A stretch of 64,000 nt of DNA from Takakia lepidozioides (Eukaryota; Plantae; Bryophyta), in contig CM060732.1 in NCBI GenBank assembly GCA_030704615.1, positions 40,362,001 to 40,426,000 on the forward strand, in the 5' to 3' direction. Positions 5,880-46,606 of the stretch are shown here, one piece after another (the first letter of the stretch is position 1; the number at the start of each line of letters is the position of its first letter). A model generated the notes under the pieces. It had not been told where the DNA came from, searched no databases, and saw nothing but the letters and a program-made list of their open reading frames with translations. The translations under genes were made by a program, and so were the position numbers.

Positions 5880-6386
5880 TAGAACGTCCCTGTGAACTCG
5901 AACCTGCGACAGGCTTGGCAGGACGTTGAACAGTTCAGCAATCGTCGATGGCTGTCTGGGGTGAGGTGATGGGATGTCACGTGGAACAGCTGGTGGTGGC
6001 AATGTGGTGGCAGGATCCGTTTCCAAAATGTTAAATGAAATGATGATGTTGAGAAGTGTACAGGGAGGAGAGTAGTGGACTTGACTATCTTCTTTTGGTT
6101 TTTGGTTCCCTAGATAGAAGAGCTCGTAGATGTTGGCCGTACAGAGTGTGGAAGACAAGACGCCCATGGTGAATAGTGTCTACGAACAGGGAAGAGAGAG
6201 ATAATACAGAAAATGATGCATGGTGTGGCGGTTGGGAGGACTGGTTGTGTTCCAGTACCATGTACAATTCTAGGATTGGGTGCTAGTTCCTGTTGAGTCA
6301 AGAATTATTGTGACTTGAAGGATCTGTACATAAAGCAAATGGTGGTGTTAGGCCATTCAGTGGAATAAGACAAGAGGAATGTAAGA
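5880..6386 (+). repeat. 5' LTR of element A
   Basis: Direct repeat of 11140-11650. Confidence 0.95.
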
Positions 6387-6389
6387 TCT

Positions 6390-6401
6390 TGGTATCAGAG
6401 C
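6390..6401 (+). promoter_or_regulatory. Primer-binding site for initiator tRNA-Met
   Basis: TGGTATCAGAGC, 3 nt after the 5' LTR. Confidence 0.95.
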
Positions 6402-6517
6402 AGATTTCGACCTTTTGGGATTTGTGGTTTATGAGCCAATTGACATTCGGCTCTGGAAGCTCGTTGCTTCAGTGGGATATAATCTTTAAAGGTAGATGTA
6501 GTATATCTCCGGAGTCG

Positions 6518-9500
6518 ATGGAAGGAGAGACAAGCCATACACAGGCTGCAGTTGAGAAAACACAAGAAATTGTTGTACCAGAAGAACTTATCACTATGAA
6601 AGCGGGAGATCTAGCACAGGTCATTCGCGAGGCGGTGGCGAGTGGGGTGAAGGAGGGCATAGCTGCTGTTGGCAAGAGACCTACAGCAAATCCAACTCCA
6701 CCGGCGGTGCCACCCGACCAGCAAGCAGTAGACCAACCAGTAAGTGTTCCCCATAATGATCTGCGTACAAGAACTAGGACAAAAAGAAAAGAGGCTAGAG
6801 GTGGATCTGCCTCTGGTGCACCCTCACAGGATAGCCGCTCCATGATGGCAAGGGATTCTAAGAGAAGGACGGTTGACAAGGAAATTAGGAAGATGACGCA
6901 TCTTCCTGAATTCCATGGTCGCCCAAATGTGCCTTGCACAGAGGTGCTGTCTTTTCTAGAGACTCTGGAAGAGTTCTTCAGTGAGGACTATACAGATGCA
7001 GATAAGATCCGCACAGCCTCATTGCAAATGAGAGGCAAATCTAAAGAATGGTGGATTAGAATGAAAGAGAAGCCGGGTCTGGAAGGGAGAGTGGACCCGA
7101 TTACCACATGGGCTAAGTTCAAACGGGTCTTCAAAGAACAGTACCTGCCAGAGGACTATGCGCACAGGATGAAAATGGGTTTGATGGAACTTAGCCAGGG
7201 AAGAATGTGTGGCAGACTACAAGGTAAAGTTTGACGAACACGCTTCATACTTCTATTCCTTGAAGGAGTCTGACAGGGTGGATTTCTTCCTGACTGGACT
7301 AGATAAGGCTATCAGATTTTGGTTCAAGCGTATGAGCCGAAGACAGAGGCTGATGCATATAGACTAGCTATCATTTTGAGAGCCAGCACAGAGCACATCT
7401 GGGTGCAGTGCACCTATTGATAGGGATTTCAAGCCGAAGTCATTCCCTTTGGTGGAGGTCAGAAGGAGAAAGAATTGGAAAAGGTTCAATAAGAAGACAA
7501 CAAAGACTGAGCCTAGAGATAATCAGAAGTTTGGAGCTTCAGCGACCAAACGCCTATCAGAGAAGGAACAGGAAGAACACCGGCGCTTGGGTCAATGTTT
7601 TATCTGTCATGAGAGAAACCATAGGGCGTTCGAGTGTCCCAAACGCGTACAACGCGCAGCTGCAGCTGTGATTGTGCAAGAGGTTGAGGATAAAATGGAT
7701 GTGGATGCACCTGGGACGAGCAAGGGTAAACAACTGAGGATCTCAGCGGCTGTGATGGGTAAAGAGATAGACCATAATCCCACAGTCATACGATTAAATG
7801 GTCAGGTGGGAAGAGAAACCACGGCTGTTTTGATTGACCCAGGAAGCAGCCATAACTTCATGTCTCAAAATTTTGCAAACAAGTGCAAGCTGCAGTTGAA
7901 GGAGGTTGGCACCAGTTTCATTTTGTTGCCCAATGGAGATACAGGATCTACCAACAACAGAAGTTTGGAGATCCCTGTCACAATGCAAGGGATCACCACT
8001 GAGGTAGATTTTGAGGTCTGGGATGGCGCGAGGTACGACATCATTTTGGGAATGCAGTGGCTGGCAGCTGTGGACGCTCAAGTGGCATGCCGAAATTGTG
8101 CAGTAGAGGAGGAGTTGCCTGGTGGTAAGCGATTTAAGCTTACAGGTACGAGAGCCCTACCCAATGTTCCTTTGTTGTCAGCCCTTCAAATGAAGCGATG
8201 CATACGGAAGACAGCCGGTCAGTTGTTCTTCGTAAGCATTCATGAGAATGATGACAAAGACATTGAAGTGAAGTTGAACAATCTCAACAGAGCAGATAAA
8301 ATCCTGTCTGAATTTTCAGACGTGTTTCCCAGTGATCTGCCTGGACTACCTCATGAAAGGGATGTAGATCATGCCATTGAGTTGGTTCCTGAAGCAGTTT
8401 CTGTCTCTAGAATTCCTTATAGGCATTCTTTGGTGGAGAATGAAGAATTGGAGAGACAGCTGGCTGATTTGCTAGAGAAAGGTTATATTAAGCCTAGCAA
8501 GTCTCCCTGGGGAGCACCAGTGTTGTTTAAAAAAAATAAAAATGGAACTTTAAGGTTGTGTGCGGACTACAGATGGTTGAATAAACTAACCGTAAAGAAC
8601 AAGTTTCCACTTCCTAGGATAGATGACTTATTTGATTACTTGCATGGTGCGCAAGTATTTTCAAAGATAGACCTACGAAGTGGATACCATCAGATCCGTG
8701 TCAAAGACTCGGACACGTTTAAGACGGCCTTCAGAACTAGATTTGGCCACTATGAATATACAGTGATGTCTTTTGGACTCACAAATGCACCAGCCACTTT
8801 CATGTGCTTAATGAATACCTTATTCAGAAAGTATCTGGGGAAATTTGTGTTAGTCTTCATGGATGACATCTTAATCTATTCCAAGTCTGAAGAAGAACAC
8901 ATAGAACACTTGAAAAGTGTCCTTGAGATTTTGAGAGAGAATAAACTCTATGCTAAGAAGAGCAAATGTGAGTTTTTTGTTTCCCAGATGGAATACTTGG
9001 GATTTATAGTGTCAAATGGCATGTTAGTTGATCCCAAGAAGGTAAAGACTGTGGCAGAATGGCCTGTCCCGAAGGATAGAACAGATGTGAGAGCATTCTT
9101 ATGACTTGCAAGCTTTTATAGAAGATTTATAAAGGCATTCTCCAAGATTGCAGCCCCTCTCACTAGCCTGCTGAAAGGCTTAGGAGCGATTACCTGGACC
9201 GAGGATTGTAATGAGAGCTTTGAAAAGCTTAAAGATATGTTAACACATGCTCCTGTCTTGAAATTAATGGATTACAAGACAGGTGGTCTAGTACTTTGCA
9301 CAGATGCAAGTGACCTGGCCATAGGAGATGTGTTATGCAACACGGACAGGTAATAGCTTATGAGTCTAGAAAACTAAGCCCCAAAGCTGAACTACCCAGT
9401 GCATGAAAAAGAATTGCTAGCCATCATACATGCCTTAAAGGTTTGGCGGCATTATCTACTGGGAAGGGAATTTAAGATTGAGACAGACCATGAAAGCTTG

Positions 9501-11127
9501 AAGTATCTGGCCACACAACCCAACCTCAGTCGCAGACAGTGTCGTTGGGTAGAGTTCCTCCAGCAGTTCTTCTTTGAATTGCATTATGTGAAGGGGAAAG
9601 AGAACGTGGTGGCAGATGCATTGTCCAGAAGAAAATGGGCAACTGCTATTTCAGTGATAAGAAGCACTGTGATAGAAGAGATAAGAGGTCAGTATGCTAA
9701 AGACGCATATTTGCTGGCCCGTTTGAAAGCCTGTCTCGTGGGGTCAAGGCTCCTGATGAAATTGGCAAATATCTAGCTTATCTGTTAAAGGATGGGTTAT
9801 TATACTGTGATGGGCGTCTATGCATCCCTCAGGTTGCAGACTATAGACTAAAGATCATGTATGACTGTCATAACATACCCATTGCAGGCCATCCTGGCTT
9901 TCAGAAAACGTATCTTGCAATTAGGAAACAATTTTTTCTGGCCTGGGATGAAGAAGAATATATGAGAATATGTTGAAAGGTGTTACCCTTGTCAGGTAAC
10001 CAAAACAGAACAGATCAAGACTCCTGGACTTTTGCAACCTCTGAATGTGCCTAGGCAAAGTGGGAATCTATAAGTATGGATTTCATTGTCTCATTGCCTA
10101 AGACAAGAAATGGACATGATGCCATCTTTGTGGTAGTCGACCGCTTGTCAAAACAAGCGCATTTCATACCCACAAAGATGAGTGCAACTGCTATAGACAC
10201 GGCTAATCTCTTTGTAAAAGAGATATACAGACTGCATGGATTGCCAAGAGAAATTGTGTCTGACAGGGATTCGAAGTTTACGAGTGGATTTTGGACTGCT
10301 TTGTTCAAAGCTTTGAATACCAGATTATGTTTAGCAGTGCTTACCACCCAGAATCTGATGCTCAGACAGAGAGGACAAATAGAACTTTAGAAGACATGCT
10401 CCGAATGTATGTGGGGCAAAGGCAAAGCTCTTGGGAACAATATTTGCATTTTTGTGAGTTTGCCTATAATAAGAACATGCATACAGCTATTGGGGTAAGC
10501 CCATTTGAAGCTGTTTACGGACAAGATTGCTTGACACCAGCATCTTGGCATGTTTCTAATACTAGGGTCGAAAGTGTCAATCAGATGATAGCACGGATGC
10601 AACAAGAGATGGACCTAATGAAGGATAGCATGAGGAGAGCTCAAGAAAGGGCAAAGACCTATGCTGATCAGAAAAGGTCTTTTAGAGAATTTGAGATTGG
10701 AGATCAAGTATTTTTGAAAGTGATCCCTAAGAAGAGCCAGTTGAGCCTAGGAAAGTGTTATAAGCTTTCCCCAAGGTACTATGGACCTTTCAAGATTATC
10801 AAAAAGATTGGCAAAGTCGCCTACAAGCTGGAACTGCCTGTTAGGTGGAAAATACATGATGTATTTCATGTGAGCCTTTTAAGGAAATATGTTTCAGATC
10901 CCAGCCATATTCTCCCAGACTTGCCGAAAGTCACAACCGAAGGAGAAATTGTGGCAGAACCAGAAGAGATTCTTAAGGTAGAGATGAAGACCTTGAGATC
11001 TCATTCTTGGAATGAATTCTTGATCAAGTGGAAGAATTACCCTATAGAAGAATCTACATGGGAGAGAGAAGATGCTCTTCGTAAGAATTTTCCCCAGTTC
11101 AGTATTGAGGACAATACTCCCTTATAG
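6518..11127 (+). pseudogene. gag-pol of element A (frameshifts and stops)
   Basis: gag LPEFHG and zinc knuckle [14 protein letters not shown]; protease [10 protein letters not shown]; [13 protein letters not shown] and FMDDILIYS; RNase H EKELLAII..TDHESL; integrase SMDF, VSDRD, GPF; chromodomain FLIKWKNYPIEESTWE. Confidence 0.95.
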
Positions 11128-11139
11128 GAGGGGGGGTAA

Positions 11140-11650
11140 TATAACGTCCCTGTGAACTTGAACCTGCGACAGGCTTGGCAGGACGTTGAACAGTTCAGCA
11201 ATTGTCGACGGCTGTCTGGGTGAGGTGATGGGGATGTCACGTGGAACAGCTGGTGGTGGCAATGTGGTGGCAGGATTCCGTTGATCAAGACCAAAAGCTT
11301 GAAATGATGATGTTGAGAAGTGTACAGGGAGGAGAGTAGTGGACTTGACTCTCTTCTTTTGGTTTTTGGTTCCCTAGATAGAAGAGCTCGTAGATGTTGG
11401 CCGTACAGAGTGTGGAAGACAAGACGCCCATGGTGAATAGTGTCTACGAACAGGGAAGAGAGAGATAATACAGAAAATGATGCATGGTGTGGCGGTTGGG
11501 AGGACTGGTTGTGTTCCAGTACCATGTACAATTCTAGGATTGGGTGCTAGTTCCTGTTGAGTCAAGAATTATTGTGACTTGAAGGATCTGTACATAAAGC
11601 AAATGGTGGTGTTAGGCCATTCAGTGGAATAAGACAAGAGGAATGTAAGA
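11140..11650 (+). repeat. 3' LTR of element A
   Basis: Follows PPT GGAGGGGGGG; repeat of 5880-6386. Confidence 0.95.
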
Positions 11651-11912: not shown

Positions 11913-12188
11913 ACGTAGTTTTGCACAGTTGTCACAGTACATGGGGAACGGTTAACATGGACAGGGAACGACTATGTGGGAACGACATCTGCAGAGGGAA
12001 TATGTTACTTCAGGGGTGACGGTTAGTTAGCAAGGCGGTTAGAACAGCTTGTAGGTAGATAAAGCGAAGGGCGGGGACTTCCGGGGGATCACTTCTTGGA
12101 TCACTTTTTAGACATCAGGGAAAAGGTCAGACGGAGGGCACAATCTTGGAGCATAGGGATGACGATTACACAGAAGAGGAGATGATGA

Positions 12189-12273
12189 TGTCGTGCGCAT
12201 ACATATCGCTACACAACTACATCGCTGTCCAAACCACACCACACATATATGCACAATAAAGTAGTCTGCCACA
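12189..12273 (-). repeat. Terminal repeat B2 of element C
   Basis: Near-identical to 12619-12702; ends GCACGACA (sense) at the TSD. Confidence 0.92.
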
Positions 12274-12274
12274 A

Positions 12275-12616
12275 TGATAGAAAACCAACGAACACACTGG
12301 ACACAAAACATGAAACCAAACATCACTCTTTAAAACAGTAGTCGAGCCAGGGGCACCCCAAGCTATGGGGACTCCACCCCACAACACCTACACCCCATCA
12401 TAGTACACTCAGACCTAAACGCATGCAGGAGTTCGGTCGCGCAGGCTCAACTCGAGAAAGATGAGCCGCGCGACTGCCGCTCTCGTGAAGATAAGACGGA
12501 CCAGGTGTCAAACTAAACTTGACACCTGATTTAACACTTGACCTAAATCCAAGTGTTAAATACAAATAACTAGTTTTATTCTAGCTGTTTTCACACTGTG
12601 CTTATTTAACTTGACA
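12275..12616 (-). repeat. Repeat A2 of element C
   Basis: Copy of 23670-24018; sense TGTCAAG...CTATCA. Confidence 0.95.
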
Positions 12617-12618
12617 GC

Positions 12619-12702
12619 TGTCGTGCGCATACATATCGCTACACAACTACATCGCTGTCCAAACCACACCACACATAATGCACAATAAAGTAGTCTGCCA
12701 CA
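12619..12702 (-). repeat. Repeat B1 of element C, directly after the PPT
   Basis: Sense CTAGGGGGCGAT then TGTGG...GCACGACA, then GC, then A2. Confidence 0.92.
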
Positions 12703-12959
12703 ATCGCCCCCTAGCTGGTGGATAGGTCCCTCTACCTCCAGATAGCTACAAGATGTAATAGCCACAGCCGTACTAAGTCCTCTATCACTGTCCCTATTGT
12801 ACTCAAACTCTATAGACCAAGAGGCCGGGTACAAGAGTAGCCCCATCGTTAGTCGCCGTCTTGCAATCTATGAACTTGAGCCAAGATCTCGTGTGTTCAA
12901 GGTCTCCTAGTAGCTGGGCTTGCGTTTCTTGTTAACCTCCCATGGTTGTATCCACTCCA

Positions 12960-14300
12960 CTATCCAATGCAATGTGGACATAACCAATCCCCCCGGAACC
13001 ATCTCAAGAGGTGGAGTCAAGCATCCCATATGCCAACCTCTAGAGCACGATCACATACCAGCATGGTGGCTGCCCCTTTAGCAGACCCACACAACATGCA
13101 CCTCAAACCTGCAGATACCACTGCCAGGTTTGGGTCAATCCTGCCATCGACATTCGGAAGGTGACATGGCGCACAATTACGCACATGGTCCTTCCAAGTT
13201 ATGCCATCCCGACCCTCCAAGACCAAGACGCCTGAGGGCAAGACCTCTCGAACCCTCAAAATAACACGTCCTGCAGTCACATCCAGGGTCGTAGGAGCAG
13301 TCTGCTGCAGATAGACATAGTCACCAGGGTTGAATCTCCGAACCCCAGGACGATAGCCCCACCACGTATGGTAGCATACCTCAACGTATCACGGTGTTGT
13401 GCAATGGCAAGGTTCTCGAAAGCCATGGGCATGACTCTCTTGAACAACTCTGCACGCTGCTCACATGCACGTGCCCACACGTCCGGATCGTCAAGGTTAA
13501 GAACTGTAGCAGCTTCTCTGCGAATGGATGTAGGCAAATCCGGCTCTCGGCCAAAGAGAAGAAAGTATGGTGAGAAGAGGCAAGTGATGCTTGCTTGCTG
13601 AACCTGTAGCCCATGGCTAACCAGGGTAACTGAAGGTCCCAATCTCCTAGGTGTCCCTTCTGCAAGCCATACTTGCGCAAACCCCTCTTTACTGTCTGAA
13701 CAACTCTCTCTGCCAAGCCATCGCTTCAGGATGATCCCGAGAAGTGGTGCGGTGGTCTATCAAGGCTTTGTCACACAAAGCCTGAAACTCCCCCAAGAAC
13801 TCTCTCTCCCTTGGTCCGTGAGTACCTCAGCTGGAGCACCGAATCGGCTAAGCACACAATCCAGGAATGCATACGCAGCTCCCTCACTAGCCTTATCAGG
13901 CAATGGAACCAATTCAATCCACTTGGAGAAGTGCTCCACCATCACCAACACGTACTTGTTGTGGCGCATGGTCAGTGGCAACGGCCCTGCGAAGTCAAGA
14001 CTCCACCTGTAGCCCAATCCCATGATCGGAAGAGGGTGCAATTGTGGAGTAGGGGCGTTGAATGAAGCACGCACCCTGTCACACACCATGCACCTAGCCA
14101 CAAATTGTTGCACCTCTGTGTGCATACCACGCCACCAATACTGCCCCTGCAGTAGACTATGAGTGCGTCGCACCCCAAAATGCCCCAACTCCTCATGGGC
14201 ATGCCGCACACTAACCGTGCCCGCTGTGTTGGGTGAGGCACAATCCTCACTCGACCATCCTCCCACACTCGGAGCAGGTGTGTCCCCTCCCACCTGAACC
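12960..14300 (-). pseudogene. Integrase (HHCC + DDE) with C-terminal PHD finger, element C
   Basis: HEELGHFG..CMVC; WSLDFAGP, LTDQG, AERVVQT; PHD CMLC..MLVCD..GWHMGCLTPPL..GDWLCPHC (frameshifted). Confidence 0.92.
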
Positions 14301-14459
14301 TCTTGGCTCGTTGTAGGATCCGATCCCTCTCCTTGGCAGTCATAGTGGCTGCCGTGTCTCCACTGCGGAGGTAGTCCAACACAACTGAATCCTCATGTAT
14401 ATCTTTGGCGCCACCCTGCTCATTGCTGGCCTCAGGGTCCTCAGACACTTGATCTACAG

Positions 14460-15990
14460 TCATCCCTGTTGTAGGTCCAACCTGGCCTTCCGCTGCCAAG
14501 ATACACAGAAATGCAGATGCATGCCATCCGGCACCATCTCCTCGTCCGTCTCACCATGCCACCGAGCTCCAGTGTCATCCTGCTGGCTCGTGCATGGATT
14601 GCGACTCAACCCATCTGCATTTCGATTGACCAAACCCGGTCGATGCACCACCTGAAAGTCATACTCTTGAAGGATGAGTGCCCACCGTGCAAGCTTCCCC
14701 GTAAGCTTGTCTGACTCCATCAACCACTTGAGTGGTTGGTGATCCGTGACAAGGGTGAAGAGATTGCCGTATAGATAGCACCTGAAGTGTGCCACGGCCC
14801 ACACTGCAGCTAAGCATTCTCCCTCATATGAGCTATACTTAGACTCTGCAGCATTGTTCGAGCGACTAGCATAAGCCACTACGAACTCTCTTCCCTCATC
14901 ATCCACCTGTGTGAGCACCGCTCCAAGCCCCAGCATGCTCCAATCTGTATGCAGCTGAAAAGGACGCCCCCTGATAGGTCGTCTCAAGATGGGCGCCGAG
15001 GTCAACCTCGCCTTGAGCTCTTGAAAAGCTTGTTCTTGCTCATCTTCCCACTGCCACTCCTGGTCCACCTTGGTCAGCTTGGTTAGAGCCTTTGCAATGG
15101 CACTAAATCCCTTAACAACCGTCTGTAATAGTTTGCTAACCCCATGAAAGCTCGAACTCGGCTCACATCCGTGGGGCGTGGAACCTGTGCAATGGACTCT
15201 ACCTTAGTCTGCTGTACCCCCAATCCTCCAGGATATATCATGTGACCCAGATACTCAATCTGGTTGTGGAAAAACTTGCACTTGCCCGGATGTAACTTCA
15301 ATCCGTGCGTCCTCAAGCGCTCAAATACCCCCTGAAGGTGTCTCTCATGCTCCTCCACCGTAGCACTAAAGATGATGATGTCATCTATGTAGCACCGAGC
15401 AAACTCCACCCCTGCTAGAATCCTGTCCATGACTCTTTGAAACTCAGCGGGAGCGTTTTTAGCCCAAATGGTAAGAACCGCCACTGGTATAGGCAATCCT
15501 TCCCGTGCTCATTGATCCCCCAGAATGCCGTCTTTTGCTTATCCGCCTCCTTGATCGGCAACTGGTGATATCCGGATCGTAAATCCAACGTGCTAAAGAC
15601 CTTGGAATGCCCAATGGCATCAAAGATCTCCTCTGGTGTTGGCATGGCATACCTATCGGACTTGGTCTGACGATTTACAGGCCGGTAATCACCGCACATA
15701 CGTCTCTCCGTCCAATTGCCATAGACATCCTTCTTAGCTGGCATCACTGTGGCTGAAGCATACTCTCCACCAGAGAGCTCCACCAACCTGCCTCCCAGAG
15801 ATCTTGAGTCCTCATCTGAATCAAAGACCTCTCCATGTCACTGTATCTATAGGGTCTCCGAAAGATTGGCGTGTCAGTGGCCAACTCAATACGGATCTCT
15901 TGACCCTTCAGTGCTCCCAAGTCCTTCAAACTGAAGGCAAAGCAATTCCTGTAAGCCCTCAGGAACCGCCGTATACGTCGTCTCTCTCCT
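14460..15990 (-). pseudogene. Reverse transcriptase and RNase H, element C
   Basis: [44 protein letters not shown]; RNase H LHTDWSMLGLGAVL, YEGECLAAVWA, VTDHQPL. Confidence 0.95.
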
Positions 15991-16379
15991 CCGGTGACAA
16001 TGGGTCCAATGTCAGGCTCCCAATTGTCCTCCGTAACTGCAACCTTAAGTCCAGTGGGCTTAGAGGTAGAGGACGCGTCCCGTGGTTGCTATGCTGCAAC
16101 CTCTTGAGCAGTACCCCCTTCCTGCTCAGTCAATGACAAGGCCTCATCCTGCCCCATCATCTCATCATTGAGAACCTCCTCATCCCGAGAAGAATCCCCA
16201 ACCTCATCCATCACAGCTGCCTTCGCTGCCAACTCCCTCTGAACCTCGAGCACCTCCCACATGTGCCATGGATGTCTACACCTCGTGGTCCTCACCGCTC
16301 GCCCCCACTCGCTGCCTGTACCGTCTCGGTAGGCAGAGAGACCGTCAAGGGAAGTGCACTCCGCACTCTACGTTGCTCA

Positions 16380-17335
16380 GCCATAGCCAAGCTGACAATC
16401 CAGGTCAAGCAATTGAGATCCATTGCTTGCCCCAACACCTGACGACGTGATGCCTCAGAAAGAGAAGGCACCGCCGTGGTCCCAGTGGAAACCCCATAGC
16501 CCGCTCTCGCTCGTCGGCATTAGGCTCCACTAACTGCTGCAACTGAGCATCCCACAGGAGGCCAGGTCCACCATCCCGAAAAGCATGGGATCCTGGGAAG
16601 CTGAGCAGTGTAGGTAATGCTGCTCGTGGTTGACCCACCCTGTTGACCACTGCCAAAGGCGAACGGTCATCGTGTCTCACACGTTGAGACTGCCTTCCTG
16701 TGTCCAAAATGCCATCCACGGTGAGGTGTGCTGGCCGCTGCACCCCATCAAATGCACGCTTGAGCAGTGCGGGTGGCATCAAGTTAGTCCACCATAGTCG
16801 TGGACGATGAGCCCGTGACCCCACTGCAGCTGCATCCAGCAACACTGCTGACCCAAGCCACGACCGGACTTGATGCACACTGGCCATGGCCCGAGAATCA
16901 CCCATCAGTGGTACATTCTCCAAGATGTATGCTGGAGATACAGCTTGATGAAGCTGCAAGCAACGCAAAATCCGCACCATCTCCCAAAACAGACCCGTCC
17001 TCGAGTCTCGCAATCCATTGCCATGCCGGCTGATGAATGCCCTTGGCAGGGCCAACCTGCCACTATCAGATCAATGGAGCCAACCTGCTCCAAATCTTGC
17101 GCCCCCAACAACAAATGTCTGCTGGCAAGGCTTGTTGGTATCCACGAACTGCAGACACAGGCAACAAGTCAGGGTACTGCTGTACCAACTGAGCCACATG
17201 GCGCAGTGAGACGCGTCGTGCAGTCTCATCCCTCTCCACATACAGGTAACGCCTTACCCGCACACCTGCCTGTAGCACAGCAGCCAATCCGGTGCTGATC
17301 CCGCCAAACAAGTCCAGAAGGCAAATGCCTTCATC
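16380..17335 (-). pseudogene. C5 cytosine DNA methyltransferase domain (DNMT3-like) within pol of element C
   Basis: Motifs in canonical order: I LLDLFGGISTG, II YVERD, III PADI, IV DLIVAGWPCQ, V GLF, VI YILENV, VIII AHRPRLWWTNL, IX ERERAMGFP, X RRQVLGQAM; split over several frames. Confidence 0.93.
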
Positions 17336-17683
17336 CGCTGCCACACAAGAGGTGTGGTGTCCAATGGCGACAACTGAGGTGGCCCTGGTGCAATCACCGC
17401 ACTCTCCTCCTCTCCTGACGGTACAAAAGCTTCTTCCCAAGCTTGTTGCACCCGTCCATCAGCAGCTTGCTGCAAATCTTTGCTCGTACCCCACAACGGA
17501 GTGTGAGCAACCATGGCAGGCAACTCCGCCGTACCATGCATGTCATCCTGCTCTGCTGGAGGTGGCACATCCTCTGCATGGCATTGCCTTCCAGCAACTC
17601 TCCAGGCCAACTAACGGCAGCTGTGAAGGCGGCTAGTGTTGGCATCTTGCCCCGCTGGGCAGCTGCAATACCCCCAATGAATG

Positions 17684-18090
17684 TCACAGGGAGCTGTGCA
17701 CGGCGACCATCCCTGACTGCCATCCAGGCCTGTAGGATGCTGACTCCTCCCAGAAATCCAGGGTGAAGCCCATGGGGTATAACACTGCCCCACCAACGAG
17801 GACATCGTAAGAGACCGCGTCTGTCACAATGGCCTTGGCTCGCATCACTGAGCCATCTACAGGATGATCCGGCTGCAGTCTAATAGCCAACTGATGCGTG
17901 TCATGCCGCGAGCCTGCTCTGATCCTCCCAGAGATGTCTGTATCTGGAAAGGACAAGGCTCCATATCCGCCTCCATGAGGCCCAAACCTGCAATAGCAGC
18001 TCTGCCCAACATCAGTGGCTGAGCTCCTGAGTCCAACAAGACCCGCAGTGGCCGGTACTTCTTGCCTGCCGGTCCACTCAAAGTGAAAAT
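17684..18090 (-). pseudogene. Aspartic protease, element C
   Basis: RVLLDSGAQPL active site; YDVLVGG. Confidence 0.85.
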
Positions 18091-18099
18091 CCTCCCTGG

Positions 18100-20264
18100 T
18101 TGTCTAACAAGACAACTCCAGGTGTCACCATGGCGCGCTCAATGGCTGGCCTAGCTGGCAGCTCCTCAACCTGGCAGCTGCAACTTGCCAGGGCGCAGCC
18201 GTGGCAGTCTTGACCCTCAAATCCGAGGATCCCTCTGCCACTACACCTTCCACTAACTCCGCAGAAGATGAAGTGACCTCCCCACTCTCACAGAGTGTTG
18301 CTGCTAGTCTGAACACTGCAGCTGGTCTCACCCCCGGCGTCGCAATCATGTTGCCGAGAACAGTGGGGCCTGACACACAGAGGTGGCTGCCCCCAATAAC
18401 ACACCGGCCGCACTAGCCTTGGCAGCAGGAGTCAATGCTGCACGTGTAGCTCTCCCCAATGGCATAGTAACCTCCGCCGGTAACAGTCGGCGAGAACTAG
18501 GTGCCATGGATGGCGTTGACACAGTCTCCGCCAAGTGAATGACTGAGGAAGCCTTGCCTGACGGCTTGCCTCCCCACGCTGTGGATCCAATTCCACCTCT
18601 GCACCTCGTGGCTCAGGAACTCGTGCTGCTCCTCGAGTCACGGCTGCAGCAGACTCCACCTGCTCTAGTGGTAGTGCTGCTCCGCACATAAATCCCATGC
18701 CTCCCATATCTCCTCCCTCAGGAGCAGGAGGTGGACCATCCCGCCTGGGAGCCGGTACCGCCTGAGCTATAGCCATGGCAGCGAGCCTCTGCTCTAGCTG
18801 CTGAAGCCGGTTGGCCATGCCTTGATCAACGCCCTGACCTCCGCGTCCTTGGCCATGTTGAGCTTGCCCTTGGCCTGCACCTCGTGCCCGACCACCTCGT
18901 CCTCTCTGGGCTGGTCCACCTCGCCCCCGCACCATTGTTCCCTTGGAACTGGCCTGGGCGCAACTCAGGATGCAAGTCATAACACTGGGCATCTCCATGC
19001 CCATACTTGCCACAATGCCCACACTGCAACTGTGCAGGCTGTGCTTGTGCCGGCCTTCTGCCACTCTCTGGGCAATCTCTCTTGACATGGGGTCCTCCAC
19101 ATGTCCAACATATCACCCCTGGTTGCTGTTGGCCTGCAAAAGATGCCACGGGCCTCTGCACCTGAGGTCCCCTGTAAGCTCCATGGAACTTGGGCTGGGC
19201 AACCTTGCCCCCCCCCTGACCACGCTGTTGGGCAGTCCCTTGTGCTTGTGGGCTGACAGCTGTGCCCCGTACAGGCATGTCCTTGCCAAATCCAATTGTA
19301 ACAACTCGCTCCTCCACCATGTTGAGCTCAATCCGCTCAGCAGCAGAAACACATCTGCTAATGTGGGTTGGGCTGCTTGTAACAGGGTTGCATCTCGCAC
19401 CCTTCTCTTGAGCTCCTTGTCCAGAATTCCATACCAAAACTGGATTGCCTGAGCTTCAGTAACCCCTTGGGTCACACTTATCAAGCGCCTCATACGAGTG
19501 TACGCCTCTCGCAGGCTCTCACTGGGTTTGCGCTGGAAGTCTTGCAAACTTCGCAGCTTCTCTGTCCGTACACCTTGGTAGTTCCTCCGCAACTCCTGGA
19601 AGAACTCCACCACCGGGTTGAATCTAGGCACATGTGTTTGTGTGGCAGGAGGAGTAGTAGCACCTTTGAACTGGTACCACCTGCAGAAGTACCAGCACTA
19701 CTGCTCCACTATGTGCTGGCAGTGGGAGCTATTGGTACTGATGCAGCTACTGGTCGCGTCGTGCCTCGAGTAATGGAGACGTAGTCAGGTGACCAATACA
19801 TCCTCCACTCCTCAATCTCTGCTTCATGTCCTCGCCTGAACTCGTGGTAATCGTCCATAGGCGGGCCTTCCAAATGCTGGAACAGTCCCTTCCACGCCAT
19901 GAATGGGGTGAATAGCTGTGGATTGCGCATCTGCTGCAAATCACACCAGCTGTCGAACTCCTGGATAAAGTCATCCAACTCGATTGTGCCCACAGCTCCA
20001 GAGTACCTACGAGGCCTTGGTAGCTCCATACATCTCCTCCATGTCGTCCCACACAATGGCGAATGAAAGTGCACACCTGTTGATGAAGCCTCCGAGTCTG
20101 TGTCTGACTCTACAGTAATTGAGGGTGGCGGTGAAGGTGTCTGAACCGAATACCTCGTCTTGTGAACCCACTCTCACTGTTACTGCCTGTGCCGTACTCC
20201 CCTCAAAACCCTTGGGTAACTCCGTAATGACACTCACAATGTGCACCTCCTCCACGTGACACAT
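18100..20264 (-). pseudogene. gag, element C
   Basis: PRRYSG..LDDFIQEF, QRKPSESLREAYTRM; two zinc knuckles CWTCGGPHVKRDC and CGHCGKYGHGDAQC. Confidence 0.85.
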
Positions 20265-20768
20265 AAGGCTCTAGTACTAATCTAATAGTGACACGGGTGG
20301 GCACCTGTTGCAGTTAAGGGTCATATCCCAATGGCTCAGGGCCCTGCACCTGCATCCACCGCAAGAACTCCTATGGTTGGCTGGTCTCAACCCCGCCTCA
20401 CCATAGAAGAACACTGGTGGTCTTGCTGGTCTCACTCCACCAGCCTCACCACCGACAGCATACTCTAGGATTGACCGTGATCAAATCCGCCTAATCCCTA
20501 TGAAAGCAAGCGCCCACACAAAACCAACATGGCGCACAGTCAAGCATGCAGGTGTTGGGGGGGATCCAAACACAAGAAATCAAAACATCAACACCCCCAC
20601 ACCAAAATCCAGCTGCAATGCTGATCCTGCAGAATATCCCAGCCCAAAACCCCGGGCTGACTGGCCTCCACCAAGAGAGGCTTTGGCAACTACAAGTATA
20701 AGGTAATGAAAATAGTACAGAGATGGAGGGGAAGAATAGAAGCCCGCCCAGCAAGATCTAACCCTGAT

Positions 20769-21605
20769 CTATGCTATCAACTTCCAGACTTCTCTCAAAG
20801 TACCTCGCTCTGCTTGATGGTAAGGTGTAGGAGGTATATCTATGTCCAGAAACCTGCCACTAACCTTGTCCCAAGCTACAGTAGCTCGCTCTAACCAACC
20901 CTCCTCCTCTTTCTGCCAGGTAGAGACAAAGCAACACTCTGCTATCTCCCGCTCACTGAACACTAAAGAAAACAAAGGTAGGGTCTGATAGTCTCTCAAC
21001 TCGAAAGCTTTGAGACGGTTGCGGGTGTCTTCATTGCGAATGACTGCATCGCCTTCAAACAGAACAAACTTGTCCTCGCTAATGAACCCCCGCTCGTGGT
21101 TGCCTTGTGCAGAGCGTGTCCGACTGCAACACTGTCTAATTGCACAAACTTGTGCAGCTCCTGCTCCTCTGCTCCAGTACACCACGGCCTTGTGGCTGAA
21201 CACCTTGGTCCCCGGTGCTGTCTTTGGCTGTGTTCCAAGCCTAGCTTTCACCCACTTTGGTATTTCACCTACAGCTGCAGAACTGCTGGCTCCAACAGAG
21301 TTCTGACTGTCCAAGGCGATATTGAGGCCCTCAATGCCAACTACAGCAGTCTGTTGTCTACTGCTAATGCCTGACTCCCAGTATGCAATCAACTCGTCCA
21401 ACTGTTCTCCACTCAAATCAGTCTGAGTTCCTTGGGAAACATAAATCCTGTCCCCTTGTGTGCACAGGCTAAGAGAAGAGACCTGCCCTTCAATTACGTC
21501 CTCATTTCCCCCAGCCATGCAAGGAGTACATCCACAGGTTTGTCTCTCATATAGGCCAGCACAGGTTCTAGAAACAGGATTGTGGATATTTCGTGGCACA
21601 CTCAC
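20769..21605 (-). CDS. Extra upstream ORF (278 aa) of element C, unknown function
   Basis: Uninterrupted 278 codons, same sense as gag-pol and 5' of gag; no motif recognised; the listed start codon is GTG, so the true start may be a downstream ATG. Confidence 0.55.
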   Translation of the reverse strand: MSVPRNIHNPVSRTCAGLYERQTCGCTPCMAGGNEDVIEGQVSSLSLCTQGDRIYVSQGTQTDLSGEQLDELIAYWESGISSRQQTAVVGIEGLNIALDSQNSVGASSSAAVGEIPKWVKARLGTQPKTAPGTKVFSHKAVVYWSRGAGAAQVCAIRQCCSRTRSAQGNHERGFISEDKFVLFEGDAVIRNEDTRNRLKAFELRDYQTLPLFSLVFSEREIAECCFVSTWQKEEEGWLERATVAWDKVSGRFLDIDIPPTPYHQAERGTLREVWKLIA

Positions 21606-22000
21606 ACTCTAAAAATTCCATAGATTTTTAGCAGAGTCCCAAAAACAGAAACCAGGTCTAGATAGGTAGATTTCCCCTTTCTGCAGCTATCTCCTCAAAA
21701 ACTGTGTCAAACAGAGTTCATTTGCCAAAGATATGACCAATTAGGCTCTAAATCCTTTAACTTAGATCAAAAGGTTTTCTTTTTCTTTTTCTTTTTCTTT
21801 TTCTTTTCAAATTTAAAAATTCAAAGGAAGGTGAGAAGCTCTTTGGAAACTTCCCCTATCCTTACATGCTTTTCCACCTGGGTCATGCTTTCTCCCTGCA
21901 TGGGGTGGAATTTGCATATGCTTATCAGCGTTGGAGAGGGCGGCAAGAGCGGACGTACTGATTGCGGGCGTACAGAGCTGAAGGATGGGCTTTAGGGGCT

Positions 22001-22078
22001 ATGGCGGCTGTCTCAATGCAGGTTGTAGCGGAAGTCTCCTGCTCGACTCTGTGGCAGTCGGGCTTTCTGGCGGGTTCC
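22001..22078 (+). pseudogene. Captured 5' fragment of a host gene, transit-peptide-like
   Basis: [26 protein letters not shown], abutting the RPL8 fragment in the opposite orientation. Confidence 0.4.
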
Positions 22079-22274
22079 AATGTGCAGATGGTTACCACCT
22101 CCATGGGGATGCTCAACAGGGTTCATGGCCACACCCCGCACCTTAGTCCAGCTATTGCGCTTCACCTTGTACTTGTGATATGCACACCTTCAGCATAGTC
22201 TACTCTGTTCGGCCCCTTCCAGCAACCTGCCCTACCATCGCTCGGCATCCGCTTGGTATAACCTTCTTTGCTCC
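22077..22274 (-). pseudogene. RPL8: Captured 60S ribosomal protein L8 (uL2) C-terminal fragment
   Basis: [59 protein letters not shown]. Confidence 0.92.
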
Positions 22275-22343
22275 CTTAGTGAGAAGGATGTATCTTTTGT
22301 GCTCGTTGCATTTCGTGTCCAATTACTCCATCTACGTTGAGGA

Positions 22344-22646
22344 TCAAAGAGAAAGCAACGACACCTGCTCGTCAAGCGAGCACTCAACACAGCACGAAGT
22401 GCGGCAGCGAGCTGGAATGAGCACAAGGCCCAGGCTACGTTGTTCCATAGGCGGGGGCTCCTTCATCACTGATGCAGAGGGGCCAGGAATTTGCCTGAAC
22501 TCCAGAGTGTCATACAAAATTATGTTCCCTTGTTTGTCCAGACAATGAAATTTCTCCACAAACACTCGTCCGTCCTCTACTCCCACACGCAGCCTGCGAT
22601 ACAGAAGCTTCCGCGCCCGCTTCACAATGGGCTTCACCGTCTCCAC
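22344..22646 (-). CDS. NAA38: Captured intronless Sm-like NatC auxiliary subunit (NAA38/Mak31/LSMD1), ORF open
   Basis: RKLLYRRLRVGVEDGRVF..FHCLDKQGNIILYDTLEFR..EQRSLGLVLIPARCRTSCCVECS. Confidence 0.85.
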   Translation of the reverse strand: METVKPIVKRARKLLYRRLRVGVEDGRVFVEKFHCLDKQGNIILYDTLEFRQIPGPSASVMKEPPPMEQRSLGLVLIPARCRTSCCVECSLDEQVSLLSL

Positions 22647-22733
22647 TCCCTGCTCCTCCTGCTTCTCTTCTCTACCTTCTTCTGCTGCAGCCGTCCACTT
22701 TGTTGGAGTAGGATCCCCTCCTCGGGTCGAAGG

Positions 22734-23445
<712 letters not shown>

Positions 23446-23653
23446 GCTTGCTGGATTGCACCGACTCCCTCTTTGTCTATCCTCTTTGTTTATTGCTGCT
23501 ACTTGACCCCATTCTCAGATATAGCCACATGTTGACAAAAATTGCAGCAACATCTCAAGCCTCCCGTTCTGCTCCCCGTGACCAAGCTATATTATAATAG
23601 TGCTTAAAAAACAAAAACATCATATCTAGCTTAGCACTGGAAAACTAGATAGA

Positions 23654-23669
23654 GCTCATCTTTCTCGAG
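23654..23669 (-). promoter_or_regulatory. Non-tRNA primer-binding site of element C, complementary to its own LTR
   Basis: Sense CTCGAGAAAGATGAGC directly after A1; perfect reverse complement at 23853-23868 and 12451-12466. Confidence 0.85.
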
Positions 23670-24018
23670 TGATAGAAAACCAACGAACACACTGGTTACA
23701 CAAAACATGAAAACCAAACCATCACTCTTAGAAAATAGTAGTCGAGCCAGGGGCACCCCAAGCTATGGGGACTCCACCCCACAACAACCTGTACCCCTAC
23801 ATAAGCACACTCAAATCTAAACACATGCAGGAGCTCGGTCGCGCAGGCTCAACTCGAGAAAGATGAGCCGCGCGACTGCCGCTCTCGTGAAGATAAGACG
23901 GACCAGGTGTCAAACTAAACTTGACACCTGATTTAACACGTGACCTAAATCCAAGTGTTAAATACAAATAACTAGTTTTATTCTAGCTGTTTTCACACTG
24001 TGCTTATTTAACTTGACA
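23670..24018 (-). repeat. 5' repeat A1 of element C
   Basis: Copy of 12275-12616; begins TGTCAAG at the TSD. Confidence 0.95.
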
Positions 24019-24380
24019 ATGACTTGAGGGAGGTTTATTTCATGCAGAGCTGTAGTGATACTGTAGGGCGGATTAGAGTCACTTTGACATTGGCCTAGTA
24101 CCTGATAAATCGTAATCTGATACTTATTCGATACAAGCACACTGTGTAGAGAGACATGAGTGAAGCTGTGAATGCACTCCTCCATCCTCACAAGGGGAAA
24201 ATCTATCCCCATGTCCCAAGTGAGACTCGACACTTCATTTGGCATGTGAGACCCAATGAAGTCCCAACACACAAAATATAAATATAAATATTTAAAATGT
24301 CATAGTTAACTAGAAGTAGGTAATTCTAGATAACCATGACTAAAACCATGACAGTAGGGACACTGCTCAAGTCCTTAACA

Positions 24381-25821
24381 TTGACGGTCCGGACGTGTGG
24401 GTACGTGCATGTGATCAACGTGCAAAGTTGTTCAAGAAAGTCATGCCCATGGCTTTTGAGAACCTTGCCATTGCACAACACCGTGATACGTTGAGGTATG
24501 CCACTATACGTGGTGGAGGATATCGTCCTGAGGTTCGGAGGTTTAGCCTTGGTGACTATGTTTATTTGCAGCAGACTGCTCCTACGACCTTGGATGTTAC
24601 TGTAGGGCGTGTTATTCTGAGGGTTCGAGAGGTGTTGCCCTCAGGGGTCCTGATCTTGGAGGGTCGGGATGACATGACTTGGAAGGACCATGTACGTAAT
24701 TGTGCGCCATGTCACCTTCCCAATGTCGATGGCAGAATTGACCCGAACTTGACAGTGGTACCTGCAGATTTGAGGTGCATGCTCTGTGGGTCTGCCAAAG
24801 GGGCAGCCACTATGCTGGTGTGTGATTGATGCTCAAGAGGTTGGCACATGGGATGCTTGACAACACCTCTTGAGAGGGTTCCTGATGGAGATTGGTTATG
24901 TCCACACTACTTGGTATAGTGGTAGTGGATATGACTAGTGACAGCTAACAAGACATGGGGGGCCAAGCTCATCGAAGTCAATACACGAGATCCCAGGCTT
25001 AAGTTCACAGGTTGCAAGACGACGACTAAAGATGGGGCAACTCTTGCACCCGGCCTCTTGATCGATCGAGTTTGAGTATAGTAGGGACAGTGGTGGAGGA
25101 CTTAGTGAGGCTATGGTCACTATCACATCTTGTGGCTACCTGGATTTAGAGGGACCTAAGCACCAGCTAGGGGGGCGATTGTGGTGGACTACCATAGTGG
25201 GCAGCCTAGCGACTGACTAGTGGTAGTCTAGTGGTTGGACTAGTGGTATACTAGTGGGTGGTGTGCACATGTGTTGTGTGGTTTTGGACAGCGATGTAGT
25301 TGTGTAGCGATATGTATGCGCACGACAGCTGTCAAGTTATTTCACCACTAGTGTGAACTAGCTAGAAAATAGCTAGCTTTTACATATTGACATTTGGGAT
25401 TGGCCCAAGTGTCAATCCAGGGGTCAAAGCAGATTTAGGCCCTGGAGTGGTTAGCTTCATGGCAAACGCGGGAGGCTCATCTTTCTCGAGTTGAGCCTCA
25501 CCGCGCCTAGCTATGGCGCCGTAGTGTGGATTCCCCATGGCGCGAGGTGCACTTGGCTTGACTTGTATTTGAGTGATGAGTTTATATATGCATGAGTTCA
25601 TGTTTGAACTTTGTGAGCTCGCATGAGCTTGTGCTTGTATTCTTCTTCTTTATCATTGTGGTGGACTAGTGACTGCCATAGTGGGCAGCCTAGCGACTGA
25701 CTAGTTCAGCCTAGTGGTTGGACTAGTGCTGGACTAGTGGTATACTAGTGGGTGATGTGCATATGTGTTGTGTGGTTTTGGACAACGATGTAGTTGTGTA
25801 GCGATATGTATGCGCACGACA
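24381..25821 (+). mobile_element. 3' end of a second C-family element (D): integrase tail, PHD, PPT, B1-GC-A-B2
   Basis: Protein highly similar to C's integrase/PHD; PPT 25169-25175; B1 25180-25327, GC, A 25330-25655, B2 25657-25821 ending GCACGACA. Confidence 0.92.
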
Positions 25822-43007: not shown

Positions 43008-43822
43008 GAGAAGAGGCTTAGCCTCAGAACTTTATTTGAATTATTTGAAGGGAAAAGAATTAAAACCCTTTGATGCCCGAAGGCTGCCATAAGGCTTAAC
43101 ACACGACAGGGCGTGACGGATATCCCGATGAACTATGACTGTACTGCAGAACCTTCTAGCTGGAAACAGATTACAAACCGATGACCAAAACTAGTTTCGA
43201 GAAAACAGAAATAACGTGGAACAAGCCCAATGCGTGTAGCCTTCAAGTGGCTATGATGTTACGTTGTGCATAATAGATAAGCATGGGGGACCAATCATTC
43301 CTTGAAGAAGATTTTCCTTGCATAAAACCATTGTAGAAAGTAGAGAAAATCTAAGTGCAGAAGTGGAGAGGAGGGGAGATCTTTCTGTAGAGCGGCTTGG
43401 TCCTTGTGCCAGTCTTCACATGCTTCCAGTTGACATCCGATTTATCAAACTTTGGGGAAGCCGAAGAGGAGGGCTTTGCCATTGAGGGGGGGTTTCCCAG
43501 GCCAGACACAATCTCCTGCTCCCGTGCATGTGCAGATGACGTCGTTTCTGCCCCAAGTGCCCCTGAAGGAACTGATGAGGGCATGCTGCCACTCTGGGTG
43601 TTTGACGATGCCTGCACGCACTTTTTCCCAAGCAAGTTTAGTTGCTATGGTAAGATCAAAAAATATGTTTGTGAGTGTAGCAGTGGCCGTGGAGTTGACA
43701 TTGTCCAAGGACCAGAACATCTGGTTTTTTAGAGATGCCATAGAGTGTATCCCCTCAATGGAGATTGCTTTCAATGTGAGAGGGTGGGCCATGTTGTCAA
43801 ATAAATTAATTGCAGTTGGAAT

Positions 43823-44109
43823 CAGTGTTTTGTTTTTCACTTTTCCAAAATCGCAGGCAGGGCCACATGTAAATTCTACCCAATGCCCATGTGGCGAGAA
43901 TAACAAGGTGACAGAGCTAGAAAAGCGGCTATATAACAAGTATTATATTTTAAGAGGTCCACGTAGGACAAATCTGGCTCCTGATATTTAACCATTGGCG
44001 TTTTCTGGCGATTTTTCTTGATTTTTATTCCCATGATACCTCAGTAAAAGTAGCTGACCCATTTTCCAGATCGAAATTTGGCGATTTTTCGCCAGATTTA
44101 AAAACAGTG
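43823..44109 (-). mobile_element. hAT-type MITE, copy 1
   Basis: CAGTGTTTT-type TIRs, 8-bp TSD GTTGGAAT; homologous to 46330-46606 in inverted orientation. Confidence 0.88.
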
Positions 44110-44200
44110 GTTGGAATCATAAAAACATATTAACATCAGCAAAATACACATAGAAAATCTACTTCCTAGAAACCGGGTTTCGTGGGCCAGTAAGGATTAA

Positions 44201-44484
44201 CCCCTAAACGACGTTTTCTCCCAGGAAAATTTGGGATCATGGATAATTTGCTTGGACAAACATGAACTTTTGCTTTGTTTTTTCCATTTTCAAAAAAATG
44301 CACCGTCTTCAAACTACACGGTGGAATCTCCCCAAATTTGGGGGGCTTGTGCATATGGTAGGTAGGATGCAGTTTGTACGGTTCATCCACGTGGATGAAC
44401 TTTGGTGGGCAGGTAGCCGCTGACGTGTGAGGGTGGGTCCCGGAATTGTCCAAAAACCCAAAAACACCTCTCGTCCTTTAGGGG
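44201..44484. mobile_element. piggyBac-type MITE
   Basis: TTAA|CCCCTAAACGACG...CGTCCTTTAGGGG|TTAA; 12/13 TIR match. Confidence 0.75.
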
Positions 44485-44801
44485 TTAAGTTCATACATTA
44501 TTTCTGGGGTTCTCCATTTTATGCATTGTTTTGCTTTTTTACAATAATTATTATTTTTGGGTATATTTCCAGTATTGATACTCATCTCATTTTTAATATA
44601 ATTTTGTTTGAATTTATGGATGTGTAATTATAATATATTAAGAAATCCCCCCAAAAGAGGCAGTAGCCATTTGGCAAAGTGCTCTTAATTATGCCGGCCG
44701 TCTTCTCTCTCTATTAATAGATCTACATTTTTAATTCTCCAAAATATAGACAAGAGATAGAAATTCAATATTAAGAGTTGACATTTCATTAGCTATTACC
44801 G

Positions 44802-46329: not shown

Positions 46330-46606
46330 CAGTGTTTTAAAATCTGGCAAAAAATCGCCAGATTTCGACCTGGAAAATGGGTCGGCTACTTTCATAAAGG
46401 AATTTTGGGAGTAAAAATAAAAAAATTCGCCAGAAAGTGCCAATGGTTAATATCAGGAGCCAGAATTTTTCTACGTGGACCTGTCAAAATGCGACACCTG
46501 TTATACAACCACTTTTCTACGCCTACAACCTCGTCGTTTTGGGCACTGGATAAAATTTACATGTAGCCTTTGTGGCGATTTTGGAAAAGTGAAAAAAAAA
46601 ACACTG
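46330..46606 (+). mobile_element. hAT-type MITE, copy 2
   Basis: CAGTGTTTT...AAAACACTG; TSD TTCCAAAC/CTCCAAAC. Confidence 0.85.

Follow-up and report, generated by a model that had tools for sequence, protein, structure and literature searches.

Structure of the element

The window, a stretch of 64,000 nt from Takakia lepidozioides (assembly GCA_030704615.1, contig CM060732.1, 40,362,001-40,426,000), contains a young copy of a Ty3/gypsy retrotransposon, read on the minus strand in the order gag-protease-DNMT, a TAG stop, and RT-RNase H-integrase-PHD, with gag, protease, reverse transcriptase (RT), RNase H and integrase arranged as in Ty3/gypsy elements. Its coding part comprises a gag region in several frame pieces, including a capsid-like part with two Cys/His boxes (18536-20029), an aspartic protease (17711-18114, LLDSG at 18039) with Pfam protease matches in single-frame homologues, a DNMT3-like C5 cytosine methyltransferase in four frame pieces (16367-17335) without nonsense codons in 326 aligned codons, an RT with RNase H (14573-15950; RVT_1 and RT_RNaseH matches, YIDD at 15391), and an integrase with an H2C2 zinc finger, an rve core and a C-terminal part (13199-14445). 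The integrase C-terminus carries a PHD finger with one frame break (12969-13100), whose homologue in locus L011 matched PF00628 at E 1.3e-11, and the best PDB matches of this finger include CHD4, KMT2D, PHF12, KDM5A/B and PHF21A, several of whose PHD fingers read unmethylated H3K4. No tyrosine recombinase match was found among the scanned frames of the element, where the rve integrase is present instead.

Ahead of gag, a long leader (20050-23653) contains host-gene-like fragments (PF03947 at E 2e-10, LSM at E 0.009), with a C-terminal piece of uL2 at 22189-22016, a weak LSM match at 22916-22347 and an unassigned 279-codon frame at 21608-20772, for which all scores in the Atlas comparison were below 0.9. 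For comparison, a scan of metagenome contigs yielded 211 relatives, of which the best 80 were kept; these loci are called Sphagnum-type hereafter because they share the terminal residues of their frames with named Sphagnum proteins. The leader measures ~3.6 kb in the window vs ~1.2 kb in the Sphagnum-type loci, and no similarity between it and the 80 loci was found. Host transcripts have possibly been captured in it.

From gag to the PHD finger, the copy switches frame about 20 times, with no nonsense codon in 1100 aligned codons. In two public DNA runs from one sample, 24,581 and 28,247 contigs matched positions 15700-18300. At each of the 12 gaps listed (of 21) relative to those contigs, it was the window that lacked bases, and eight of these gaps coincided with frame breaks; one contig matched the window over 763 bases with two substitutions and two gaps. 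A contig from a second organism was 90-95% identical across the whole methyltransferase domain, while contigs from a run guessed to be RNA covered parts of the region and left 16483-17091 uncovered, which is evidence neither for nor against expression. As nonsense codons are absent, the two B repeats at the 3' end (described below) differ by one indel and matching contigs are abundant, we infer a young, high-copy family, in which the frame breaks of the window copy stem for the most part from assembly errors or are peculiar to it.

A DNMT3-like methyltransferase domain

The methyltransferase is divided by frame breaks near 17113, 17025 and 16488, and its motifs follow one another in the non-permuted order I-II-IV-VI-VIII-IX-X of the conventional numbering: LDLFGG at 17323, YVERD at 17242, GWPCQ at 17057, ILENV at 16926, RAHRPRLWWTNL at 16815-16780, ERERAMG at ~16515 and VLGQAMD at 16438. 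The minus-strand translation thereby bore out the original prediction of a non-permuted C5-methyltransferase with PCQ, ENV and RxR motifs, and its placement between protease and RT without separate repeats agreed with the positions of LLDSG and YIDD and with a self-BLAST of 12800-24200, in which no repeats around the domain were found. The PF00145 search proposed with that prediction succeeded with the intact homologue P0002 (E 6e-11) and remained weak for the largest window piece alone (E 0.017), because the domain is split over its four frame pieces.

As a query, this largest piece retrieved 86 homologues among 3148 candidates, with E values down to 2.8e-76 and best identities of 70-72%. The named homologues included Marchantia, Calypogeia, Riccia and Sphagnum proteins, those of Marchantia and Calypogeia being 70% identical to the query. 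A profile built from 39 homologues matched DNMT3A first in PDB (E 1.8e-23), then DNMT3C and DNMT3B, vs 1.1e-9 to 4.7e-7 for DRM-type structures and ~1e-6 to 1e-5 for HaeIII and HhaI (M.HhaI 5.8e-6). With the predicted model of P0002 (mean pLDDT 88.4), all 34 rows listed by Foldseek were DNMT3 structures (best E 8.5e-19, 22% identity). Both sequence and fold thus placed the domain nearer to DNMT3 than to the DRM, bacterial or DNMT2 enzymes. The catalytic cysteine was kept in 122, the glutamate in 123, the asparagine in 124 and the two arginines in 119 and 121 of 124 dereplicated rows, drawn from 168 sequences with at least 80% of the domain plus the window and ranging from chlorophytes to land plants. 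Judged from its sequence and the predicted fold, the domain is a DNMT3-like C5-methyltransferase with all catalytic motifs and not a DRM, as had been proposed. Capture of a DRM was rejected on two grounds, the non-permuted motifs and the alignment of DRM structures to the motif I-VI part of the profile only.

The fold and motif order are those of host plant DNMT3 and animal DNMT3A/B, the best PDB relatives. In contrast to these host enzymes, the window type is ~22% identical to DNMT3A, lies inside a mobile element, and showed no DUF3444 in the 28 homologues scanned (4 + 24 DNMT-only), a domain carried at the C-terminus by host land-plant DNMT3, of which PpDNMT3a/b are examples (Yaari et al. 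2019, PMC6453930). Homologue searches, which were partly limited to the candidates sharing most words, returned no named Klebsormidium nitens protein and no host DNMT3. One weak methyltransferase match (34% over 94 residues) was obtained in viral contigs, and none in prokaryotic genome contigs with one query; a match labelled as a bacterial bin (P0240, on a 2.4-kb contig) is probably a stray eukaryotic contig.

Distribution, phylogeny and selection

When a single-frame relative was used as query, 90 proteins were recovered, including sequences from Closterium, Haematococcus and Chlamydomonas eustigma. At E<=1e-30, the homologues formed 269 cluster representatives (50% identity clustering) spanning liverworts, Sphagnum, Closterium and chlorophytes. 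Retrotransposon domains were present in 96 of the best 150 representatives, and in 70/70 of those of at least 900 aa. The chlorophyte-type relatives differ in architecture, with the order RT-RH-DNMT-IN-PHD in 58 proteins.

In the DNMT tree, which has a midpoint root only, the window belonged to a group of liverwort and Sphagnum sequences (support 99), and proteins of the RH-DNMT-IN type made up a side of their own (support 98). The RT and DNMT trees had many small clades in common, and distances along the two were correlated (r 0.81 in a Mantel test with 70 shared tips, vs at most 0.30 in 999 permutations), with an r inflated by the long tip branches common to both trees. These patterns would fit one old capture and a later relocation of the domain, for which the trees give no direction. 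The range from chlorophytes to land plants makes the capture far older than one algal lineage, unless the elements moved sideways. Within the land-plant clade, the window copy branched first (support 86 for the rest), and Marchantia grouped with Sphagnum and not with the liverwort Calypogeia, for which old parallel sublineages or sideways transfer are likely explanations. The same DNMT type was also observed behind a copia-type Gag domain in P0336 (PF14223, E 1.6e-17), a hint of transfer to Copia elements, and P0249 and P0255 had a precomputed match to PF01585, presumably a G-patch, beside RNase H and methyltransferase.

Between the window and 66 loci, the methyltransferase showed pN 0.21, pS 0.74 and dN 0.24, compared with a dN of 0.17 for RT and 0.31 for the protease. 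Its Ka/Ks was ~0.1 or less between lineages, where dS is saturated, and 0.60 among the decayed Sphagnum-type copies, in which the protease reached 0.61 vs 0.34 for RT and 0.27 for the integrase (0.63 vs 0.33 for common variants). The common variants among decayed loci include stop codons, so that recurrent decay inflates these latter values, and constraint on the methyltransferase may also be relaxed there. The dN/dS comparison suggested at the outset points to purifying selection between lineages, weaker among old Sphagnum-type copies.

These data bear on whether the domain is neutral cargo, i.e. a piece of host DNMT3 acquired by a single copy or a single recent family, as a frameshifted copy in the assembly and host-gene fragments in the leader might suggest. 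The 269 clusters, the retrotransposon domains in every long top match, the saturation of synonymous sites at a dN of 0.24, the agreement of the RT and DNMT trees and the absence of DUF3444 from the 28 homologues scanned all speak against such cargo, which we hold to be highly improbable. Together with the tens of thousands of matching contigs and the 70% identical liverwort homologues, they also argue against the single-copy host capture that would have refuted the original prediction.

A conserved stop between methyltransferase and reverse transcriptase

After the domain and an acidic tail, the window has an in-frame TAG (16091-16089), in the same frame as the start of the RT region and in a readthrough-type context, TAG CAA CCA (16083-16091). 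This is an exact match to UAG CAR YYA, given in PMC3542737 as the type I readthrough signal of tobamoviruses, which also acts on UAA. In an alignment of the window and the 55 loci with enough sequence, the stop position read TAG in 37, TAA in 16 and GAG in 1 of 56 rows, with 2 rearranged; CAA followed this position in 54/56 rows, and TAR and CAA occurred together in 53/56. The Sphagnum-type copies depart from the tobamovirus signal (PMC3542737) by one base, with CAA CCC, and by a TAA in 16/53 rows. In unbroken loci, RT is in the same frame as the methyltransferase.

Proteins from other land plants stop at the same place. Frames ended 77-79 residues past the domain in five Marchantia proteins (1278-1281 aa), two of the Calypogeia cluster (1319 aa) and the named Sphagnum proteins, and an 18-row clade of the DNMT tree (support 99) contained only proteins ending after the domain. 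The single-frame relatives, P0093, P0098, P0164, P0166 and Closterium, fell outside this clade. Several gene models skip the stop via a predicted intron, which we read as gene-finder behaviour.

The stop being conserved between DNMT and RT, the methyltransferase belongs to the Gag reading frame. This is where the original prediction needed revision: the domain was expected to be made as part of Pol, whereas it ends the Gag-protease frame and would be joined to RT and integrase only by readthrough. Packaging is thereby made more likely, not less. From the sequence context, synthesis of RT and integrase by readthrough of the stop appears quite probable. In the window, no in-frame ATG was found within 54 codons from the stop; an ATG lies three codons past it in 50/53 Sphagnum-type rows, so reinitiation is possible in those copies.

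Split terminal repeats, target duplication and predicted self-priming

The element begins with a single repeat A (24018-23670) and ends with B-A-B (12702-12189). A1 (23670-24018) starts with TGTC and ends with CTATCA; at the other end, a polypurine tract (12703-12721) precedes B1 (12619-12702, TGTGG to CGACA), which is followed by A2 (12275-12616, 94.6% identical to A1) and B2 (12189-12273, ending in GACA and one indel away from B1). The outer ends, TGTC...GACA, are bordered by a 4-bp target-site duplication, TCAT on the element strand in the 5' flank (24019-24022) and repeated in the 3' flank (12185-12188). The TG...CA ends and short duplication of Ty3/gypsy elements are therefore present, and in place of two full terminal repeats of the same layout, the ends are split as A...B-A-B or A...B. 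The same junctions occur in a second, 5'-truncated relative on the plus strand (24353-25821), which retains the integrase end, the PHD finger, the polypurine tract and B-A-B.

This layout recurred outside the window, with A alone at the 5' end in 21/21 assessable loci (of 23). At the 3' end, 7 loci had B-A-B, as did both window copies, 14 had only B, and in 3 more B was accompanied by an incomplete A; the B-only copies may equally be deletions or assembly collapses. Among 10 rows, the target duplication matched at 4/4 bases in 6 and at 3/4 in 2, with damaged ends in the other 2; the exact rows L056 and L078 represent one insertion, and the chance of a 4/4 match is 0.004. The central two bases of the duplication were GT, AC or AT in 6/7 independent insertions, a possible target preference in few cases.

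At the B1/A2 junction (12613-12622), the palindrome GACA-GC-TGTC is the intact form of the two ends of the element. It occurs twice only in the window, once per element of the family, and was perfect in 2/8 old loci, the other six being one or two changes off. At the A2/B2 junction, which is nearly invariant, the end of A runs into the bases that come after the polypurine tract.

The primer-binding site directly after A1 (23654-23669) is not of the tRNA-Met type, of which an example, TGGTATCAGAGC, is found in the other Ty3/gypsy element of the window. Its 16 bases are complementary to A1 positions 151-166, where the predicted self-primer (23853-23868) provides a 17-nt exact complement, and pairing reached 14/14 vs 8 at the next best site. 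The best complement ended at the same TTGAGCC anchor in 11/22 rows and the other 11/22 had no anchor match; the sequences on both sides differ between the window and the Sphagnum-type loci. Based on this complementarity, the primer site very probably pairs with the element's own repeat and the element would be self-primed, as described for Tf1/sushi and plant Tcn1 elements, whose primer site is likewise complementary to their own 5' repeat and not to a tRNA (PMC6317226). Those elements are chromoviruses; the present one stands apart by its PHD finger, its methyltransferase and the split of its repeats. A hairpin closed by GGCTCA...TGAGCC encloses the self-primer site, both in the window and in Sphagnum-type loci (L030 2507-2845 and related ones), and could mask the 3' primer copy.

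A proposed replication cycle

We propose that the first frame would supply Gag, protease and methyltransferase, to which readthrough would add RT, RNase H, integrase and PHD finger. In this scheme, the amount of methyltransferase packaged would resemble that of Gag. The RNA would start inside repeat A and act as its own primer, with the 5' end annealed to the site that directly follows A; reverse transcription would then produce a standard linear copy flanked on either side by B+A as its long terminal repeat. Such an ordinary B+A terminal repeat is consistent with a polypurine tract ahead of B1 and a primer site behind A1. The linear ends would then be joined into a circle, with an A2/B2 junction that reads as an end-to-end joint, and within the upstream repeat the integrase would cleave this circle at GACA-GC-TGTC. 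If this cleavage were staggered, falling behind each CA, it would leave ends with the geometry of processed retroviral ends. A two-repeat circle would yield A-coding-B-A-B and a one-repeat circle A-coding-B, the two forms observed as inserted products with TGTC...GACA ends and a 4-bp duplication. HIV-1 integrase has been described to cut the palindrome of the 2-LTR junction internally (PMC1905944), and by this analogy and the arrangement of the repeats, reopening of the circle by integrase at the palindrome appears rather likely. During the cycle, the methyltransferase would mark the extrachromosomal DNA and the new copy would arrive methylated. CG is the probable target, as it was for the DNMT3s of dinoflagellate retrotransposons in yeast. 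By analogy with its PDB relatives, the likely role of the PHD finger would be to bind tails of histone H3 at the target site.

We assign a probability of roughly 0.5 to this mechanism as a whole, i.e. a methyltransferase in the Gag frame, a leaky stop, a circle and self-methylation; the identity of the lineage is its part held with high confidence, and methylation of the element's own new DNA has even odds in our view. A more far-reaching version would see a green-lineage-wide Ty3/gypsy clade with an obligate self-primed circle, reopened by the DDE integrase at the palindrome inside the terminal repeat, in which DNMT3, made at Gag level via the leaky stop in land plants, would methylate the circle and might choose the palindrome cut and shield intact chromosomal palindromes. 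Such methylation-gated integration, from one capture before the chlorophyte/streptophyte split and still intact in Marchantia, is in our opinion unlikely as a whole.

The ends could also arise without a circle, if B-A-B were present in the RNA, its junction copied, and a linear A-coding-B-A-B processed normally, with the B-only forms as deletions or collapses; such an origin bears on the ends alone and would go with either enzyme role discussed below. A junction as nearly invariant as A2/B2 could be templated just as well as end-joined. Between A1 and A2 of the window, 1 difference falls up to position 166, the end of the self-primer site, and 18 follow it, as if part of the repeat had not been recopied. 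But this asymmetry is a single case; in the Sphagnum-type loci, the differences are spread along A (12/6, 17/21 and 20/13 before/after). Moreover, the tract before B1 and the primer site after A1 have the layout of an ordinary B+A repeat, and on a linear product the first 150 bases of A1 could not be restored by any simple route. We consider a linear origin less likely than the circle. A1 and A2 change from similar to divergent close to the predicted RNA start; co-packaging of two different RNAs would lead to such a boundary, which was observed in a single case.

Possible roles of the methyltransferase

Methylation of its own new DNA by the packaged enzyme was compared with two other roles. 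An active enzyme might instead target host chromatin or the insertion site, methylating the flanks or competing elements, or damping the element's own expression. Located before the stop, the domain would be made in large excess over the need of one cDNA, the PHD finger is similar to those of chromatin readers, and in the 58 chlorophyte-type proteins the domain adjoins the integrase. Fusion to Gag and protease favours delivery in the particle, however, and the K. nitens methylome is described as ordinary and plant-like (PMC5890265), which leaves a host target unlikely.

Base composition gave no sign of self-methylation: the CpG ratio of the element was 0.51 vs 0.40 in the neighbouring chromovirus and 0.43 in a PPR gene, and CHG ratios likewise showed no such signal. 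This absence of extra CpG loss, the higher dN/dS among Sphagnum-type copies and the inactivity of the Klebsormidium domain in yeast (PMC5890265) would all be expected if the domain acted weakly or without methyl transfer, by binding or flipping cytosines or as a scaffold in the particle or integration complex. Yet human DNMT3B was inactive in the same yeast test (PMC5890265), and the cysteine, glutamate, asparagine and both arginines are kept in 119-124 of 124 rows from chlorophytes to land plants, so that a role without efficient catalysis seems to us less likely still than a host target. Methylation of its own new DNA by the element thus remains the reading that we favour.

Comparison with known elements

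The closest described system is KnitGypsy-Dnmt3 of Klebsormidium nitens, presented by de Mendoza et al. 2018 (PMC5890265) as a Gypsy element with a DNMT3 domain in the Pol frame and DIRS-like repeats, and called streptophyte Gypsy-DNMT3 in bioRxiv 10.64898/2026.05.21.726589. According to the text of PMC5890265, its domain is under purifying selection (Ka/Ks < 0.2) and gave no activity in yeast, a result that the authors called inconclusive, and methylation of new cDNA by the retrotransposon methyltransferase is their hypothesis. The two elements share, on the published description (PMC5890265), an intronless, non-permuted DNMT3-like domain with its catalytic residues kept, Gypsy domains and the A-coding-B-A-B repeat layout; purifying selection on the domain may also be common to both. 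They differ in the reading frame, the K. nitens domain lying in the Pol frame (PMC5890265) and that of the window ending the Gag-protease frame before a conserved stop. From these sequence features, the window element probably works like KnitGypsy-Dnmt3 and belongs to the same lineage; the capture is assigned to the K. nitens lineage in PMC5890265. A PHD finger, target duplication, junction palindrome or self-priming were not found in the main-text passages of PMC5890265 considered.

SymbioDIRS-Dnmt3 of Symbiodinium, for which de novo CG methylation was shown in yeast (PMC5890265), also combines a DNMT3-type domain in a retrotransposon polyprotein with A-coding-B-A-B repeats. It uses a tyrosine recombinase (PMC5890265), in contrast to the DDE integrase of the window element, which also encodes a protease and is bordered by 4-bp duplications. 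Non-chromovirus Phygy/Selgy lineages are described in PMC6317226 as short, with a coding region that fills the interior.

Elements of this type are mentioned in 'streptophytes' in the available text of Sarre et al. 2025 (PMC12344493) and of 10.64898/2026.05.21.726589, and land-plant members may be present in the trees or supplements of those two papers. In the available text of the literature considered (including 10.1101/363937, PMC3441728 and PMC11982613), no description of the conserved stop, duplication, palindrome or self-priming was found for this group of elements, nor any account of Gypsy elements with split repeats, of integration from circles combined with self-priming, of a PHD finger in Selgy or of transposon-borne DNMT3 in land plants. 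The family-level idea is already published; new here are the layout that underlies expression and integration, and how widely the elements occur.

De Mendoza et al. (PMC5890265) did not settle what role methyltransferases play in retrotransposons. Marchantia, a model plant, has at least 5 full-length Gag-protease-DNMT frames, annotated as hypothetical proteins, so that the question can be addressed there. The conserved stop predicts the dosage of the enzyme. Judging by the ends, a DDE integrase would here use circles as a matter of routine; retroviral circles are usually regarded as dead ends. Tools that search for paired LTRs would likely miss these split-end elements, and counts of DNMT3 genes in bryophytes and algae may be inflated by them.

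Other features of the window

The other Ty3/gypsy element of the window (5880-11650, plus strand) has a chromodomain, ordinary LTRs that are 96% identical and a tRNA-Met type primer site, and is likewise broken into several frames. An unbroken PPR-DYW frame of 981 codons with 303-bp repeats (59694-62639, minus strand) is typical of an RNA-editing land plant. Two pairs of inverted repeats, 2-3 kb apart, were detected at 43815-46614 and 47486-50707 and are possibly DNA transposons, and an array of short GC-rich hairpin-like repeats (GCGACCACC...GGTGGTCGC) occupies positions 2015-2489 in an AT-rich background.
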